Shown: positions 6,411 to 19,661 of the stretch, one piece after another
Layout: the number at the start of each line of letters is the position of its first letter
Position numbering within the stretch: the stretch's first letter is position 1
Origin: a virus
IMG/VR virus record: IMGVR_UViG_3300017971_000311
Location: 27,967 to 59,966 of that record
DNA: 32,000 nucleotides
Direction: 5' to 3' (one strand)
Position numbers and translations under genes: made by a program
Notes under the pieces: generated by a model
The model's database searches: none
Seen by the model: the letters and a program-made list of their open reading frames with translations, nothing else
What the model was told of the DNA's origin: nothing

Positions 6411-6476
6411 CTTCTTGTAGCTCAGCTGGTAGAGCATGGGACTCCGAGGTCGTGGGTTCGAGTCCCACCTGGCCCG
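6411..6476 (+). pseudogene. Truncated tRNA-like element (canonical D and T arms, no acceptor pairing, 3-bp mini anticodon hairpin)
   Basis: TA-GCTC-AGCTGGTA-GAGC and GTGGG-TTCGAGT-CCCAC are canonical. Only 15 nt lie between them where about 22 are expected. The 5' strand CTTCTTG cannot pair with CTGGCCC. Confidence 0.4.
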
Positions 6477-7014: not shown

Positions 7015-7043
7015 TTGACATCGTCATCCATTCAGCTTATGCT
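7015..7043 (+). promoter_or_regulatory. Sigma70-type promoter
   Basis: cTTGACA (7015-7020), 17-nt spacer, TATGCT (7038-7043). Confidence 0.6.
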
Positions 7044-14993: not shown

Positions 14994-15022
14994 TTGACAC
15001 CAAGCCCCTCACTGGTTATATA
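14994..15022 (+). promoter_or_regulatory. Sigma70-type promoter for the radical-SAM operon
   Basis: cTTGACA (14994-14999), 17-nt spacer, TATATA (15017-15022). AAGGAGG and ATG 15042 follow. Confidence 0.65.
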
Positions 15023-15041
15023 CTAGTAAAGGAGGTGCAGC

Positions 15042-15848
15042 ATGCCCTTCCAACCCTTCCTGATTAGCAAACAGAAACAGTTCACCAACGGGATCGTCTA
15101 TGGCCTACGCACCGCGGATGGCTACCCTATCGAGGTCACCGATACCTTCCTCCCCTGCTACACCAAAGATGCTGTTGGGCGCCGGCAGAACAAGCTGACG
15201 GGGGTTGGCGTAGGAGATCGTTACGAGCGTTGGATGGTAGGCGTATCTGTGATGAGTGGCTGCCCCGTACGCTGCAAATTCTGCGCAACAGGTCAGCTTA
15301 AGAAGTGGCGTTCTCTCACCGCGCAGGAGATAGCTGCCCAGGTCCAGTTCATCCTGGAGCGCAACTTGCGCTACGATCCTGCTAAATCTTACGAGTTCAA
15401 AGTGAACTACACCCGTATGGGGGAGCCATTTCTCAACATTGAGGAAGTGATTCAAGCCATCCATTTGATCGACGAGCTTCTGCCAAACGTTGACGTACAC
15501 CACTACATCTCCACTATTGGAATCGTCGGCTCAGACTTCGACTGGATCGCAGACAACGTCACTCTGCAACTCTCCCTTCACTCTCTCGACCCTGAACGCC
15601 GCAATTGGTTGATCCCCTACAAGAAGAAGCTCACCATCCCAGAGCTCGGCGACGTCAGAACGTACAGCGATCTGAAAACTACCCTCAACCTCACTCTGGT
15701 GGAAGAAGCCGACTTCGACATCGTGCGGCTGCAGAAATTCTTCCCTCCAGAGCACTTCTTCGTCAAGCTCAGTCCCATCAATCCAAACGAAACCTCAGAG
15801 AGACACGGCTTAGGTACCGGTGTTATCGACGAGGTTAATTTGCATTAG
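15042..15848 (+). CDS. Radical SAM enzyme, RlmN/Cfr-like RNA methyltransferase core (C-terminally truncated relative to RlmN)
   Basis: CPVRCKFCATG is a CxxxCxxC cluster. MGEPFLN, ISTIG, LQLSLHSLDPERRNWLIP and KLSPINPNE are collinear with RlmN motifs. Gly replaces the RlmN Cys118 position. Confidence 0.8.
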   Translation: MPFQPFLISKQKQFTNGIVYGLRTADGYPIEVTDTFLPCYTKDAVGRRQNKLTGVGVGDRYERWMVGVSVMSGCPVRCKFCATGQLKKWRSLTAQEIAAQVQFILERNLRYDPAKSYEFKVNYTRMGEPFLNIEEVIQAIHLIDELLPNVDVHHYISTIGIVGSDFDWIADNVTLQLSLHSLDPERRNWLIPYKKKLTIPELGDVRTYSDLKTTLNLTLVEEADFDIVRLQKFFPPEHFFVKLSPINPNETSERHGLGTGVIDEVNLH

Positions 15849-15862
15849 CGAGGAGGCACGCT

Positions 15863-16006
15863 ATGGATACCGACAAGATCAAAGAAGAACTGGAAGCTGC
15901 TGGGTATGACCACGCAGTAGCGATTGCGACCCAAGCTGAGGTGGAAGCGGGCGCTGCCTGTGGGCAGCTCAGCGTCATCACAGAGAGTGAGGAAGACCAG
16001 CAATAA
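15863..16006 (+). CDS. 47-aa peptide homologous to the RlmN/Cfr C-terminus (AACGQL motif)
   Basis: It has its own GAGGAGG RBS. IKEELEAAGY...AGAACGQL aligns with the RlmN F..L...G......DIDAACGQL segment that carries the methyl-carrier Cys355. Confidence 0.55.
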   Translation: MDTDKIKEELEAAGYDHAVAIATQAEVEAGAACGQLSVITESEEDQQ

Positions 16007-16010
16007 GTGC

Positions 16011-16040
16011 TTGACAACGTCAAAGGGGCGTGCTTAACTT
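16011..16040 (+). promoter_or_regulatory. Sigma70-type promoter, probably leaderless mRNA
   Basis: cTTGACA (16011-16016), 17/18-nt spacer, TTAACT/TAACTT (16034-16040). ATG 16047 lies at the expected transcription start and has no SD. Confidence 0.5.
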
Positions 16041-16516: not shown

Positions 16517-16897
16517 ATGAGCGACTTTTTGATTTGCCGCAAGTGCGGCAGCCTCAAGCGGGCGCATACCCATATTGTCTTTCACGACTTTGGCTTCCAG
16601 CTAGGGGAGCCTGGCGTTCATTATTGCCCCACCTGCGATCCTGAGCCGGCGCCCCCGCAAGTGCATCCTATTACCGATCCCGAGGAAGTGTTTGGGAGCA
16701 ATATCGCCGGAATGATTTTTGCCTCCCTGAAAGAAAAAGAAGCCAGGATTAAAGCGCTCGAAGACGCTGTGCGGGAGATGCTCAAGTATGAATGCCCGCG
16801 CTGCGATCTGGACGTGCAGGCAGCAGTAGACGTTTACGGCGTGCAGTTGACCATCACCGGAGTGTTCGATGACAACGAAGAAAAAGAGCCGCGTTGA
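16517..16897 (+). CDS. Hypothetical protein with CxxC pairs
   Basis: 126-aa ORF with CRKCG, CPTC and CPRC motifs. Confidence 0.6.
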   Translation: MSDFLICRKCGSLKRAHTHIVFHDFGFQLGEPGVHYCPTCDPEPAPPQVHPITDPEEVFGSNIAGMIFASLKEKEARIKALEDAVREMLKYECPRCDLDVQAAVDVYGVQLTITGVFDDNEEKEPR

Positions 16898-19661
16898 CCT
16901 CCTGAAGGAGATGTTCAAGGAGTATGGGCTCGATACCGAGTTCTTTTCGCAGTATGCCACGTACGTTGGGACGCAGCTAGATGAGGTGGATCGGGATCTA
17001 TGGCAAATATGCCAAAGCTACAGCTTGGATGTAGAATCGGATTTTGAGCGCGCGAAGTCCGATCCAAAAATCCAGGCCTTGGGGGCTGCCATGGCTGCCA
17101 CCACAAAAGAGTTCCTGGGAATAGGAGCTCCACGCAGCCCAGAAGAAGCATTTGCGGCTCGTAATGTAGGGGTGCCCAATACTACACTCCGTCAAGCAGA
17201 AACCGCAGTCATACTAGGTGCAACAGAGGTTACTCCGATGAGCGCAACAAAGTCCACAAAGAAACCGCAGGGTGCGGGAAGCAACCAAGAGGAAGTAATC
17301 GATCCGGCAAGGGAGCGGGCTATCACTTTATCCAATTGCTTGGAATTTCTGCAGTCAGGTGCAGCAGAGGACTTGCTTGTAGACGCGCGCATTCGCGTTT
17401 CGGAGCATCGACATGCCCAATCCAAGTACCGGCACGATCTGAGTGTGAACAATACTGTCCTGATGCCAGTTGCTATCTTGCGGTTGCTTGCGCACTTTGA
17501 CAGGTCCTCTGAAGGCTGGGCGCAACTGTGGCCTGCGTTGAAGAGGTGGCGCGTAGCTACCATTTTCCGAGATGCGCATCGAAAGGATCTACCAGAAAAT
17601 ATTCGTGTACCGGCGCAGCTGGCTGTCGATGTGTTAACGGTTATCTGCCCGCTTGCAAACGAGCGCAAGATCTCCGACCAGCTGATAAAAGAGAAGAAGA
17701 GCACCGCTTATCATACGTCTGCGATAGATCCTTCACAACGCTCCAACATGCTGGACACGGAGCCGCTATTCGTTCAGTACGGAGAATTCCCTCAGGTGTT
17801 CATGCAGAAGGGCGGTACCGTTACTTGTGACGTGTCCAAGCCAAACATTATAGTTGACGTGCGGGCAGAAACCACCTCCCTTGTTGGGCATCTTCTGCCG
17901 TCAGAAGGATTCACTGCGCCGTCCGACGCGACGATGACCGTAGTAAACTTTCCGTATGAAAACACGGACAAGCTGGTTTGTGTACTTACTCATGGGGATC
18001 TGTACCTGGTTAAGCGAAAGTATATTCCAGAGAGCAAGTATTTAGATGTTGGGCCGCTCTTTAAAGACTGGGGAAACCTGTGCATGGCTTTTGCGCTCCC
18101 AGATGGTACGGTCACCTGTGATTTCGACAAGGGCGGGAAGGCCCTGGGGCGCGTGTGGTCGCCGAACATGTCTGTTCCTGCAGGGGAGCAGGTAGTCGAG
18201 GTTCAGTATGAAGACACCGGGAAGCTGATACGAATTTGCATGCGTGGCATGGCAATGGCACTAAAGATGCCGGAGAAACCACAATACATCAGGCCAGGCG
18301 TGTACAGTGCTTCTGTTGTCGATGGCAAGTATCCTTTGCTTAATTCAGAGACGGGCCGTTTTTCGTCTGAGAAGACTAATGAAGCCAACAAGCCAAGAGG
18401 CGCAGGAGACTACAAGCTCACCACGAACCGGTATGTGCGTCCTCAGCTTAATACTAATAAGAGGTACGTAGCGTCCAAGGCATCCAAACCCCATTCGTCT
18501 GAGACTGGCCGGGTAGCGTCGGATAAGCCTAATATGAAAGAGGTTGGCAGTAAGAATGGCTACCACCGCAAAACGATATCCGCAAACTACAAAGACACAG
18601 AGCTCCGTGTGATTCTGCCATTCCTCTTCACTACGGAATTCGAGCGGATGGCAGAGGATAGTCTCTATGGGTCTGCAGAGGCTAGGTGGCTCACAGAGGA
18701 CCTCGGTATTCCCTACACCAAGCTTAATAATTGCGTGGACGCTTCGCAGGTACGCGAGCTTGTTTGTGAGAGACTGAGGCGCCTACCATGTACGCACACG
18801 CTGTTTCAAATTCCAGGATATCTACGACCAATTTTGCACCTGCTTCATGCAGGGGGCGCCACGTTCGAGAAGGACGCGCACTGGACGCATGTCCATCAAC
18901 GAGAAGAATTTTCTCTTACTATCAACGATGCCCCTTTGGAATTCCATCGGATTGGGTTCTGTCGAGATGGTCGTACTCTACGCCTGCAGATTCCTCGGCA
19001 TACCAATTCGGTAGACTTTAGACCAGATCAAAACGTCCAGGACCTGAAGCGGTTCACGCTACGGTTACGCTGCCTTTCTGCATGGCATGAGATTATTTTT
19101 GCCGACTGCTTCGTTAAGCAATACGAAGAGGCCGGAGAGATCATTCATATTTGGTATACAGGTGGACGAAGGAGCTACGGTTGCCTGCCCAACCCGCATG
19201 GGGAGACGATGGATATGTTGGGCATCTCAGGTCCGTACCCACCTCTAATCGACAACACAAAGCTTCTTGCCCCAGTTGAGGACTACCTTATTTCATGGAC
19301 CAAGGGAAAGCGGCGCCGCCAGGTAGCGGTGACTTGCATGGATCAGCTCACGGTCGAAGTGAACGGCGTGCCGATACAACCAGACTGCATCGAGTTTGAG
19401 GCATTCCCAGAAACAACTCCGCATCCGCGCGTCCATTTATTGATGAGCGGGAAGGATTGGGATGCGCATAAGGATTCGTACATCCCCTCGTTCATCAATG
19501 AGGAATTTCCAATCAAGATCACCCTTAAGGATAAGGGGGTGGTGCTCAGGTCGGATAGGTGCGTTGGCAAAATGAAAAACGCGAGCCAGGATAAGAAGTT
19601 CCGGCTTCGCGTGACGATGCTTAATTTGGAGGCGGTTGGCCGTGAGCCAAAAGAAGATTAA
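16869..19661 (+). CDS. Large 930-aa protein with degenerate family-A polymerase-like motifs
   Basis: It is the longest ORF in the window. Residues about 490-750 carry SETGRFSSEK / SETGRVASDKPNMKEV (compare TGRLSS.PNLQNIP), ANYKDTELRVI (compare DYSQIELRV), SLYGSAEARWLTEDLGIP (compare YGMSAFGLARQLNIP) and IIFADCFV (compare QVHDELV). A G(G/D)TVTCD domain is tandemly repeated at residues about 315-475. Confidence 0.8.
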   Translation: MTTKKKSRVDLLKEMFKEYGLDTEFFSQYATYVGTQLDEVDRDLWQICQSYSLDVESDFERAKSDPKIQALGAAMAATTKEFLGIGAPRSPEEAFAARNVGVPNTTLRQAETAVILGATEVTPMSATKSTKKPQGAGSNQEEVIDPARERAITLSNCLEFLQSGAAEDLLVDARIRVSEHRHAQSKYRHDLSVNNTVLMPVAILRLLAHFDRSSEGWAQLWPALKRWRVATIFRDAHRKDLPENIRVPAQLAVDVLTVICPLANERKISDQLIKEKKSTAYHTSAIDPSQRSNMLDTEPLFVQYGEFPQVFMQKGGTVTCDVSKPNIIVDVRAETTSLVGHLLPSEGFTAPSDATMTVVNFPYENTDKLVCVLTHGDLYLVKRKYIPESKYLDVGPLFKDWGNLCMAFALPDGTVTCDFDKGGKALGRVWSPNMSVPAGEQVVEVQYEDTGKLIRICMRGMAMALKMPEKPQYIRPGVYSASVVDGKYPLLNSETGRFSSEKTNEANKPRGAGDYKLTTNRYVRPQLNTNKRYVASKASKPHSSETGRVASDKPNMKEVGSKNGYHRKTISANYKDTELRVILPFLFTTEFERMAEDSLYGSAEARWLTEDLGIPYTKLNNCVDASQVRELVCERLRRLPCTHTLFQIPGYLRPILHLLHAGGATFEKDAHWTHVHQREEFSLTINDAPLEFHRIGFCRDGRTLRLQIPRHTNSVDFRPDQNVQDLKRFTLRLRCLSAWHEIIFADCFVKQYEEAGEIIHIWYTGGRRSYGCLPNPHGETMDMLGISGPYPPLIDNTKLLAPVEDYLISWTKGKRRRQVAVTCMDQLTVEVNGVPIQPDCIEFEAFPETTPHPRVHLLMSGKDWDAHKDSYIPSFINEEFPIKITLKDKGVVLRSDRCVGKMKNASQDKKFRLRVTMLNLEAVGREPKED

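Follow-up and report, generated by a model that had tools for sequence, protein, structure and literature searches.

A giant phage carries an RlmN/Cfr-type radical-SAM enzyme that lacks the second catalytic cysteine and has its key cysteine loop on a peptide of 47 residues encoded by a gene of its own. The two genes lie on the plus strand of the window, by which we mean the whole stretch of 32,000 nucleotides that was analyzed (positions 27,967 to 59,966 of IMGVR_UViG_3300017971_000311), and both reading frames were present exactly as described in an earlier note made from the letters of this DNA. Together they probably specify a single functional enzyme, specific to phages, that derives from the class A radical-SAM methylases (RlmN and Cfr) and has two components, with the peptide acting as a dissociable co-substrate. 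RlmN is a dual-specificity C2-methyltransferase of 23S rRNA A2503 and tRNA A37 (PDB 3RFA, 5HR7, and 6FZ6), and Cfr is a C8-methyltransferase of 23S rRNA A2503 that confers antibiotic resistance (PDB 9P0P). The resolving cysteine is C118 in RlmN and C105 in Cfr, and the methyl carriers are C355 and C338, respectively. To our knowledge, every class A radical-SAM methylase described to date (RlmN and Cfr) is a single-chain RNA methylase with two cysteines, and full-text literature searches yielded no account of an RlmN-like system that is split or phage-encoded. The genes belong to a very large, essentially phage-specific family that has kept the fold and the carrier loop and has dropped the resolving cysteine and the RNA-recognition domain. 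Most likely the two genes encode an active enzyme of two components whose only reactive cysteine is supplied in trans by the peptide.

The core gene encodes a radical-SAM subunit nearest to RlmN and Cfr

The core gene (15042-15848, plus strand) encodes the 268-aa catalytic subunit and is preceded by the Shine-Dalgarno sequence AAGGAGG (15029-15035, plus strand), which ends 6 nt 5' of the ATG at 15042. The motif for binding the [4Fe-4S] cluster and SAM, C74-x3-C78-x2-C81 (15261-15284, plus strand), was read directly in the sequence, and its three cysteines were invariant in the alignments. Also read in the sequence were MGEPFLN (residues 126-132), ISTIG (156-160), LSLHS (177-181), RRNWLIP, and SPINP (244-248), so that the CxxxCxxC, MGEP, STxG, and SLH(S/A) elements of RlmN are all shared with the phage protein. 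Membership of the radical-SAM superfamily was recovered with Pfam PF04055 Radical_SAM (E 7e-9; 36.4 bits against a cut-off of 29.5), and the best NCBIfam matches were all RlmN or Cfr models, led by TIGR00048 for RlmN (E 2e-21). The curated models tested were TIGR00048, TIGR04432, and NF000424. The core fell below their thresholds (RlmN, 76.2 bits where 290 are required; Cfr, 47-53 bits where 468-550 are required), and despite these scores RlmN and Cfr remained its best-matching families. With Cfr scores of this size nothing supports a resistance-gene annotation, and the genes should not carry the RlmN, Cfr, or resistance labels that some pipelines now give them.

The structural comparison led to the same families. 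RlmN from the PDB (6fz6) was aligned to the core with HMMER at E 1.9e-11, and an AlphaFold2 model was obtained with a pTM of 0.84. When the predicted structure was searched against the PDB with Foldseek, the top 11 matches were all RlmN or Cfr, with E-values from 4e-15 (6fz6) to 1.8e-7 (Cfr) and query-normalized TM-scores of 0.54-0.69; after a gap in E-values, the next family was spore photoproduct lyase (E 1e-3). The closest relatives of the core are RlmN and Cfr, both by sequence and by predicted fold, which bears out the assignment that had been made from motifs. RlmN gave the best match by either measure, and Cfr has the same class A architecture and differs from the phage system in the same respects as RlmN does.

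One of these differences lies at the N-terminus. The N-terminal accessory (HhH2-like) domain of RlmN is absent from the core, which has 61 residues before the matched region; the alignments begin at about position 103 of the RlmN model, leaving its first ~100 positions, accessory domain included, unmatched. The N-terminal residues of the core were predicted by AlphaFold2 as three beta-strands and a conserved, low-confidence loop, with no helical domain. The accessory domain of RlmN and Cfr has been implicated in recognition of the RNA substrate, both rRNA and tRNA (PMC8752094). It is also lacking in the short fused RlmN-like proteins of four other phages, namely Stenotrophomonas phage ANB28 (XMQ95057.1), Salmonella phage Arash (gp133c), Vibrio phage 166E36-1, and Bacteroides phage Versailles. 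These share 26-30% identity with the core but are single chains of 308-335 aa that carry the cysteine of a CGQ(L) or CGN motif in cis; at the Cys118 position ANB28, Arash, and 166E36-1 have Cys and Versailles has Thr.

The carrier cysteine is supplied by a separate peptide

The peptide gene (15863-16006, plus strand) encodes a 47-aa acidic peptide consisting of a helix, a beta-strand, and a cysteine loop, and is homologous to the C-terminal segment of RlmN and Cfr. Its Shine-Dalgarno sequence, GAGGAGG (15850-15856, plus strand), ends 6 nt 5' of the ATG at 15863. The AACGQL motif was read in the sequence at 15953-15970 (plus strand), and its Cys33 (codon 15959-15961) is the equivalent of RlmN Cys355. 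Cys33 is the sole cysteine of the window peptide and was invariant in the peptide alignment, and 99 of the 120 peptide clusters possessed a single cysteine. The helix, strand, and AACGQL loop with the methyl-carrying cysteine thus have direct counterparts at the C-terminus of RlmN; the difference is that in the phage system this segment is a separate polypeptide, and the carrier cysteine is available in trans only.

The homology had been proposed from the AACGQL motif, and profile comparisons agreed with it. A profile of core plus peptide aligned collinearly through aaCGQL to RlmN (6fz6) and to Cfr (9p0p), covering Cfr residues 105-341 with the C-terminal cysteine motif included. By hhalign, residues 3-43 of the peptide profile matched the last ~40 residues of the fused RlmN-like proteins (94.4% probability; E 8.7e-8). 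The relationship was seen only with the concatenated profile and with profile-profile comparison; a peptide-only profile searched directly against PDB sequences gave no significant match, and Pfam, NCBIfam, and PHROGs gave none for the peptide. Several homologous peptides had been called RlmN, independently, by the JGI pipeline. The net charge and pI of core and peptide were also computed and are uninformative as to a nucleic-acid substrate.

In the AlphaFold2 model of a concatenated core and peptide chain, the peptide was predicted to form a helix (residues 271-280) followed by a strand (284-287), the blocks containing them having mean pLDDT values of about 80 and about 73. In the model of P0244, a natural fusion, the corresponding residue blocks reached 92 and 85. 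The cysteine loop was of low confidence in both models, with pLDDT below 50 in that of the window. Such values are expected of a mobile loop, so that its access to the active site is here a proposal.

The position of the resolving cysteine is an invariant glycine

The loss of the resolving cysteine, suggested earlier for this one sequence, was found to extend to every core cluster that was inspected. The codon of Gly67 (15240-15242, plus strand) corresponds to RlmN Cys118 and lies seven residues ahead of the first cluster cysteine, and in HMMER alignments Gly67 falls on the mutated Ala of 4pl1 (the C118A mutant) and on the native Cys of 6fz6. The position was Gly in 120 of 120 core clusters and invariant in two alignments. 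No non-cluster cysteine is conserved in the core, and none besides the carrier is conserved in the peptide. Cys39 in the FLPCY motif, which the earlier note had offered as a substitute, was rejected, as its column is variable (C, F, I, M, V, R, F, Y, Y) and seven core clusters hold only the three cluster cysteines.

In RlmN, C355 carries the methyl group and the second cysteine resolves the covalent RNA adduct (PMC5130265). When Cys118 is replaced by alanine, m2A is not made and the adduct is trapped (PMC5130265; PDB 5hr6 title), and in vivo the mutant becomes stably crosslinked to tRNA through a covalent protein-CH2-adenine bond (PMC5130265). In this mutant (PDB 4PL1, 5HR6, and 5HR7), as in the phage system, the resolving cysteine is gone and the carrier cysteine is kept, and at the Cys118 position the phage-encoded system is the natural equivalent of RlmN C118A. 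It differs in that the crosslinking cysteine would be on the 47-aa peptide, so the catalyst would escape consumption.

Because the glycine is invariant and no other cysteine is conserved, the canonical disulfide-forming release should be impossible within the complex. A large clade of fused proteins (EKWVxIxSTQxGC ... SNCGQ) likewise lacks a cysteine at the Cys118 position, and it possesses only one universal non-cluster cysteine. Since the position has been lost there too, covalent trapping does not follow automatically from the glycine and is treated here as a proposal. A second, core-only family was also encountered with Gly at this position (KIGVSLxSGC). One of its members, flanked by pyruvate kinase and GreA in a cellular operon, leaves no space for a peptide gene, and this group was treated as a different family and not as part of the split system.

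The split is conserved across a large phage family

We examined whether the division into two genes is kept in related phages. A separate peptide gene was found in all 84 related viral loci in addition to the window, and in 44 of the 45 split-type cores on genome or MAG contigs. Among the close relatives every locus is split, and none carries the single fused ORF that would have pointed to a recent nonsense mutation. Core clusters number at least 2,240 and stand-alone peptide clusters at least 2,798, almost all of them from contigs of viral or metagenomic origin. The division into two genes is ancient and general, and on this pattern of co-occurrence core and peptide appear to be obligate partners. 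An inactive enzyme, one of the outcomes suggested earlier, is very unlikely because conservation is strong over thousands of clusters. Cultured carriers, which make genetics possible, include the Pectobacterium phages Arno18, Arno162, and Wc4, Yersinia phage P778, Kehishuvirus 'tikkala', Moorella phage MTATph1, and Vibrio phage D479. Neither core nor peptide matched the PADLOC defense-system models, and the family represents an abundant, unannotated phage function for which host takeover, counter-defense, and nucleic-acid modification are candidate roles.

Several departures from the two-gene arrangement were noted. No C-terminal re-fusion of the peptide to the core was encountered among about 130 loci and 240 clusters. 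Permuted fusions, in which the peptide is joined to the N-terminal end of the core, do occur in nature (P0244 and P0262), and P0262 joins peptide, core, and a second radical-SAM protein in one chain. Tandem double peptides were found in Vibrio phage D479, P0121, and P0122. In P0242 an intein is inserted at the third cluster cysteine of the core homologue, a position that suggests that this gene is of importance to the phage. Between core and peptide, 37 loci carry a second radical-SAM gene (MoaA/viperin-like), joined by overlapping stop and start codons, and in 35 loci a class I methyltransferase-like gene stands beside it, so that the peptide gene sometimes comes after two inserted genes; the window possesses neither.

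Proposed mechanism and alternative readings

In the mechanism that we propose, the core would bind the [4Fe-4S] cluster and SAM, and the peptide (~40-47 aa) would dock through its N-terminal helix and beta-strand at the site occupied in RlmN by the C-terminal extension, placing the single invariant cysteine, on the flexible AACGQL loop, into the active site. By analogy with RlmN, one SAM would S-methylate the peptide cysteine, a 5'-deoxyadenosyl radical from a second SAM would abstract a hydrogen atom from the cysteine methyl, and the resulting thiomethylene radical would add to an sp2 carbon of the target. By the same analogy, the site of addition is most likely C2 or C8 of an adenine, in RNA or in a nucleotide. 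The peptide would then be a dissociable co-substrate and not a fixed part of the catalyst. It would depart attached covalently to the target through a methylene-bridged thioether, or else a methylated product would be freed by an external thiol, whether that of another peptide molecule or a small one.

We counted the absence of C-terminal re-fusion, the tandem peptides, and the strong ribosome-binding site of the peptide gene in favor of a peptide that is dissociable or consumable. Against it stand the fused clade without Cys118 and the rare permuted fusions, in which a permanent adduct would mean single-use proteins. These proteins favor a general alternative release step and weaken the view that the peptide must leave.

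It is conceivable, and we advance it tentatively, that the first of these two outcomes is the biological one and that the core is a natural peptide-tagging enzyme, welding a disposable, acidic 40-47-aa peptide through Cys-S-CH2 to an adenine or another sp2 carbon. The target would be a host or phage nucleic acid or nucleotide, and the product would be the natural counterpart of the crosslink between C118A RlmN and tRNA. With the consumed cysteine on a cheap, separate peptide, the core could turn over many times. In loci that possess the second radical-SAM protein and the methyltransferase, the adduct may become a hypermodified base, with the peptide as a sacrificial donor of carbon and sulfur. 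If the peptide is consumed, the system would represent a new kind of enzymatic conjugation of a peptide to a nucleic acid (or nucleotide) and would show the outsourcing of a 'suicide' active-site residue to a disposable peptide.

A second possibility, likewise on the doubtful side, is that the system is an ordinary adenine C-methyltransferase forming m2A or m8A in tRNA or rRNA, perhaps in the phage's own tRNAs, with the peptide as a recyclable, non-covalent subunit and a cellular thiol or reductant in place of Cys118. It would then be a minimal two-component methylase in which the RlmN adduct is resolved without Cys118. All SAM- and cluster-binding motifs of RlmN and Cfr are retained, fused relatives without Cys118 are common and suggest other means of product release in the superfamily, and a tethered peptide is tolerated in the permuted fusions. 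A resolving thiol could also come from the second cysteine that 16 of 120 peptide clusters carry at +7, or from duplicated peptides, but most systems, that of the window included, possess no second peptide cysteine. The reading leaves unexplained why the split has been kept in thousands of lineages with no C-terminal re-fusion, it must accommodate the missing N-terminal domain for rRNA and tRNA recognition, and it stands against the abolition of m2A formation in RlmN by loss of Cys118 (PMC5130265).

The tRNA genes bear on the same reading. The window phage encodes 18 of them, as the description of the locus as lying amid tRNA genes implied, but the setting is peculiar to this phage: a tRNA gene was nearby in only 6 of the 58 other loci scanned, the window being the seventh case, and a conserved link was ruled out. 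Position 37 is A in 11 of the 18 window tRNAs, which is uninformative, and Rfam detected nothing but tRNAs over the whole window.

It is improbable that the peptide is instead the substrate, as a RiPP-like or cofactor precursor modified by the core at or near its cysteine, after the manner of PqqA with PqqE or MftA with MftC. In those systems and in the RiPP maturases, as here, a short conserved peptide gene adjoins a radical-SAM gene. The second radical-SAM protein and the small methyltransferase of many loci would, on this reading, also act on the peptide, and the single chain of P0262 and the tandem peptide repeats are consistent with it. However, homology and collinearity tie the peptide to the C-terminal active-site segment of the enzyme family itself, so that it is a detached piece of the active site, and its predicted docking is that of a structured helix and strand. 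It is highly conserved over its whole length, with no pattern of a leader and a variable core as in RiPP precursors. No SPASM, RRE, or PqqD domain was detected in the core by Pfam and NCBIfam scans, and the window lacks both of the additional modifying genes.

Junction and transcriptional setting

At the junction, the TAG stop of the core (15846-15848) is followed by 14 nt, including GAGGAGG, before the peptide ATG, and the peptide ORF lies in the -1 frame relative to the core, a frame that is open from 15839. Despite this geometry, it is extremely improbable that the split arose by recent nonsense or frameshift mutation or by sequencing error, or that programmed -1 frameshifting yields one fused protein, and these were ruled out as general explanations, as the junction was 100% identical in three independent assemblies (ENA, JGI, and Logan), all three relative frames occur among the uniformly split relatives (43, 30, and 9 loci), the gap between core and peptide ranges from -17 to +2673 nt, other genes intervene in many loci, the order is reversed in one locus (L127, with the peptide gene upstream of the core), the peptide gene has its own Shine-Dalgarno sequence, and no canonical slippery heptamer was seen on reading the overlap window.

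Upstream of the core, a 108-aa ORF showed no homology to the corresponding upstream gene of Kehishuvirus. A promoter-like site was read 5' of the core gene (14994-15022, plus strand), consisting of TTGACA (14994-14999), a 17-nt spacer, and TATATA. The earlier note had credited the operon with its own consensus promoter; a promoter-like site is indeed present, but a strict consensus scan, which needs T at the last -10 position, did not call it. The looser motif to which the site belongs, TTGACA-N15-19-TAnnnW, is enriched in the window, with nine occurrences against 1.7 expected by chance, and expression is probably from a host-type promoter. The next promoter-like site (16011-16040, plus strand), a further copy of this motif, lies just 3' of the peptide gene and bounds the two-gene unit downstream.

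An apparent two-gene unit encoding an RlmN/Cfr-like core and a separate peptide

Read directly from the sequence, the two open reading frames lie as the earlier note had described them. The radical-SAM core gene at 15042-15848 (+; 268 aa, stop TAG 15846-15848) is followed by the peptide gene at 15863-16006 (+; 47 aa), which lies in the -1 frame relative to the core. The 14 nt between the core stop and the peptide start contain GAGGAGG, and the core gene is preceded by its own Shine-Dalgarno sequence, AAGGAGG. The consensus promoter that had been proposed for the pair was recovered as a promoter-like site upstream of the core at 14994-15022 (+; TTGACA, 17-nt spacer, TATATA), although a strict scanner made no call there. 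Nine copies of this motif (TTGACA-N15-19-(C/G)TTAnnCT-like) occur in the window, where chance alone would give 1.7; they are at 7015, 9315, 12991, 14994, 16011, 23119 (-), 26683, 27861 and 28303. Each copy precedes genes or a tRNA cluster and is on the coding strand, and the motif is probably an early or middle promoter type of this phage. Because one copy stands upstream of the core and another, at 16011, directly 3' of the peptide gene, the two genes look like a self-contained unit, and one that is read by a host-type RNA polymerase. A scan for an intrinsic terminator found none.

Pfam assigned the core only a generic Radical_SAM domain, and its eight best NCBIfam models were without exception for RlmN or Cfr. 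Among them, TIGR00048 (E 2.2e-21) matched residues 62-210 with model positions 103-253 at a score of 76 bits, below the cut-off of 290. A phmmer search of the PDB returned RlmN (6fz6, E 1.9e-11; E. coli RlmN, ~1e-9) and Cfr (6e-7) only. An AlphaFold2 model was built from the window's core and peptide, concatenated with a block-diagonal alignment (mean pLDDT 79, pTM 0.84); its top 11 Foldseek matches were RlmN and Cfr only (E 4e-15 to 1.8e-7), with the next fold listed at 1e-3. The HMM and structure comparisons thus agree with the family placement suggested from the sequence alone. The 61 residues ahead of the matched region contain nothing that corresponds to the N-terminal accessory domain of RlmN/Cfr. 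Recognition of the RNA substrate is attributed to this domain, and an N-terminally truncated Cfr does not function (PMC8752094).

The peptide profile alone gave nothing significant against the PDB. A concatenated core and peptide profile from 19 loci was collinear through aaCGQL with RlmN 6fz6 residues 117-356 (E 2e-23) and Cfr 9p0p residues 105-341 (E 7e-19). In a profile-profile comparison of 22 peptides with 16 fused RlmN-like proteins (94.4% probability, E 8.7e-8), peptide residues 3-43 matched the C-terminal ~40 residues of the latter (L..xG(Y/F)xxxVxxxxGxDIxaxCGQL). Judged by these alignments, the peptide is, as had been supposed, an RlmN-type C-terminus that has become detached from its enzyme; several stand-alone peptides were independently named 'RlmN' by the JGI pipeline. 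The concatenated model placed a peptide helix at 271-280 (block mean pLDDT ~80) and a strand at 284-287 (~73), followed by the Cys loop at low confidence.

Conservation of the split in viral relatives

A tblastn search of 50,697 phage records identified the cultured carriers Kehishuvirus 'tikkala' (61% identity), Moorella phage MTATph1, Pectobacterium phages Arno18, Arno162, Wc4 and Wc4-1, Yersinia phage P778 and Vibrio phage D479. Each cultured genome checked possessed a small ORF (...A(I/V)AT.AE(I/V)..(G/K/Q)AACGQ(L/M/V)...) adjoining or near the core. Among uncultivated viral contigs, the peptide gene was present in all 80 IMG/VR loci retrieved, two of them with the G-to-S variant AACSQL. 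The separate peptide gene is therefore conserved in related phages, a check that the earlier note had called for. Across 82 loci, the gap between core and peptide ranged from -17 to +2673 nt and the relative frame was +2, +1 or 0 in 43, 30 and 9 loci, respectively; at one locus (L127) the peptide gene precedes the core. The junction in the window was 100% identical across three independent assemblies (ENA, JGI, Logan). The rival account of a recent nonsense mutation, sequencing error or frameshift is excluded by the presence of the split throughout the relatives, by the varied gaps, frames and gene order, and by the agreement of the assemblies. The split is ancient and universal, not translational.

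The core family comprises at least 2,240 clusters at 90% identity (E up to 1e-5), with a length of 260-285 aa in all of the best 120, and the peptide family at least 2,798 clusters, nearly all of 40-56 aa. A survey of 185,579 bacterial and archaeal species, with a single genome per species, yielded only 49 loci, mostly on MAG contigs; 44 of 45 split-type cores there had a peptide. Set against the viral and metagenomic abundance, this indicates that the family is essentially viral.

Taken together, core and peptide probably form a working two-component enzyme, derived from the RlmN/Cfr class and specific to phages. Three features that define this class are a carrier cysteine in cis, a resolving cysteine and an N-terminal domain, whereas here the carrier cysteine is on a separate peptide, glycine occupies the resolving position and the N-terminal domain is missing. 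The system is better described as acting in the manner of RlmN or Cfr than filed under either. A literature search found no publication on it, and the cultured carriers make experiments on its target and on the fate of the peptide feasible.

Cysteine inventory and fused relatives

In RlmN, C355 is the methyl carrier, and the covalent adduct with RNA needs another cysteine to be resolved (PMC5130265). In the C118A mutant the adduct stays trapped and m2A is not formed (PMC5130265; PDB 5hr6/5hr7 titles). In PDB alignments, Gly67 of the core lies opposite E. coli RlmN Cys118, aligned with the Ala of the C118A mutant in 4pl1 and with the native Cys in 6fz6. The absence of a resolving cysteine, noticed earlier in the window, extends to the family: the position is an invariant Gly in core alignments and Gly in 120 of 120 core clusters. 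Across alignments spanning 40-100% identity, the only invariant core cysteines are the three cluster ligands, and seven of 120 core clusters have three cysteines in total. The substitute once suggested in FLPCY, Cys39, is rejected, as this position is variable among relatives. One cysteine was found in 99 of 120 peptide clusters, and a second at +7 in 16. From these counts, many systems, including that of the window, have just one conserved non-cluster cysteine per complex.

Wider relatives, as representatives clustered at 50% identity, were sorted into four groups. Group a (n = 24), including the split family, has Gly at the Cys118 position and no C-terminal Cys in cis; group b (n = 21), the canonical and phage fused forms such as those of ANB28, Arash and Vibrio 166E36-1, has both cysteines. 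Group c (n = 28) has Ile, Asn, Thr, Met, Val or Leu at the Cys118 position and a C-terminal Cys in cis (SNCGQ), and group d (n = 18) comprises the remaining combinations at that position, with the C-terminal Cys mixed. A 20-member alignment, mainly of group c, has only four universal cysteines, and one member has four in total; the split family is thus not alone in having lost Cys118.

Two rare fusions that occur naturally, P0244 (L146:44-991; found in two independent samples) and P0262 (L148:67-2154; one 695-aa chain of peptide, core and second radical-SAM protein), are circularly permuted, with the peptide module N-terminal to the core and not at the ancestral C-terminus. The P0244 model has the same helix-strand-loop module (mean pLDDT 92 for the block with the helix, 85 for that with the strand). 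These fusions prove that peptide and core work together and, with group c, show that single-cysteine enzymes are viable in tethered form. Such enzymes could be single-turnover, or release could proceed in another way, for example through an external thiol. Since they fit either reading, we infer only tentatively that the peptide is consumed in the reaction.

In a large clade of fused RlmN-like proteins (P0295-P0376; ~300-325 aa, motif EKWVxIxSTQxGC ... SNCGQ), to which Bacteroides phage Versailles (L088:2318-3325) belongs, the Cys118 position lacks Cys and the universal cysteines are the three cluster ligands and the C-terminal one only; adduct release poses the same puzzle as in the split family. 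Vibrio phage D479 (L004:3785-4066), P0121, P0122 and P0124 carry two tandem peptide copies per ORF, or only a duplicated EAGAACGQLSII segment, giving two reactive cysteines per chain. The core homologue P0242 (601 aa) has an intein-like insertion of ~330 aa (CLLPES...VLVHN|C) exactly at the third cluster cysteine (CPVRCAF-[intein]-CATAKLG).

Gene neighbourhood

In 37 related loci (e.g. L066:4768-5956; also L089-L100, L011, L023, L039 and others), a second radical-SAM gene is inserted between the core and peptide genes, with stop and start codons that overlap; its product (255-295 aa) best matches MoaA/viperin-type proteins and has non-canonical Cys spacing. A class I methyltransferase-like gene (~150 aa) occurs in 35 loci, and both genes are absent from the window. 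NAD-salvage genes (NAMPT/NAPRTase, Nudix/NrtR-like, and NAD synthase with or without an isochorismatase domain) lie within ~5 kb in ~20 divergent loci (among them L008, L025, L040, L109, L123, L125-L131 and L087) and also adjoin a fused relative. Two distant RlmN-like proteins, P0306 and P0327, are fused to an isochorismatase/nicotinamidase-like domain, one of the two lying in a cellular metabolic operon. Such associations are a hint that the wider group may act on more than RNA. They could arise from a functional tie to NAD or adenine nucleotides, or equally from the clustering of auxiliary genes in phage genomes.

The phage of the window is large, an identical core protein occurring on a 260-kb contig. 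The placement of the pair amid tRNA genes, of which the window has 18, is true of the window, but a tRNA-rich neighbourhood is not conserved in relatives. Phage tRNAs Leu-AAG, Ser-AGA and Arg-ACG (23175-23348 (-), 14469-14543 (+)) have A at wobble position 34; to our knowledge, only Arg-ACG is usual in bacteria. Two weak extra tRNA-like Rfam matches (6417-6469 and 10614-10684) were not called by ARAGORN. A gene for an HNH homing endonuclease that ends in a helix-turn-helix at its C-terminus (13174-13785, +) lies among the tRNA genes ~1.3 kb upstream of the pair, and a 930-aa ORF without Pfam or PHROGs matches (16869-19661, +) begins ~860 nt downstream of the peptide gene. A weak major-head-protein match is also present in the window. 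At 14626-15012 two ORFs on opposite strands overlap and leave the coding assignment ambiguous: one of 108 aa on the + strand, with a TTG start, a CxxC-type motif and a weak DUF6076 match, and one of 94 aa on the - strand. The latter is preferred by public gene calls (90-aa call), yet it contains the core's promoter-like site.
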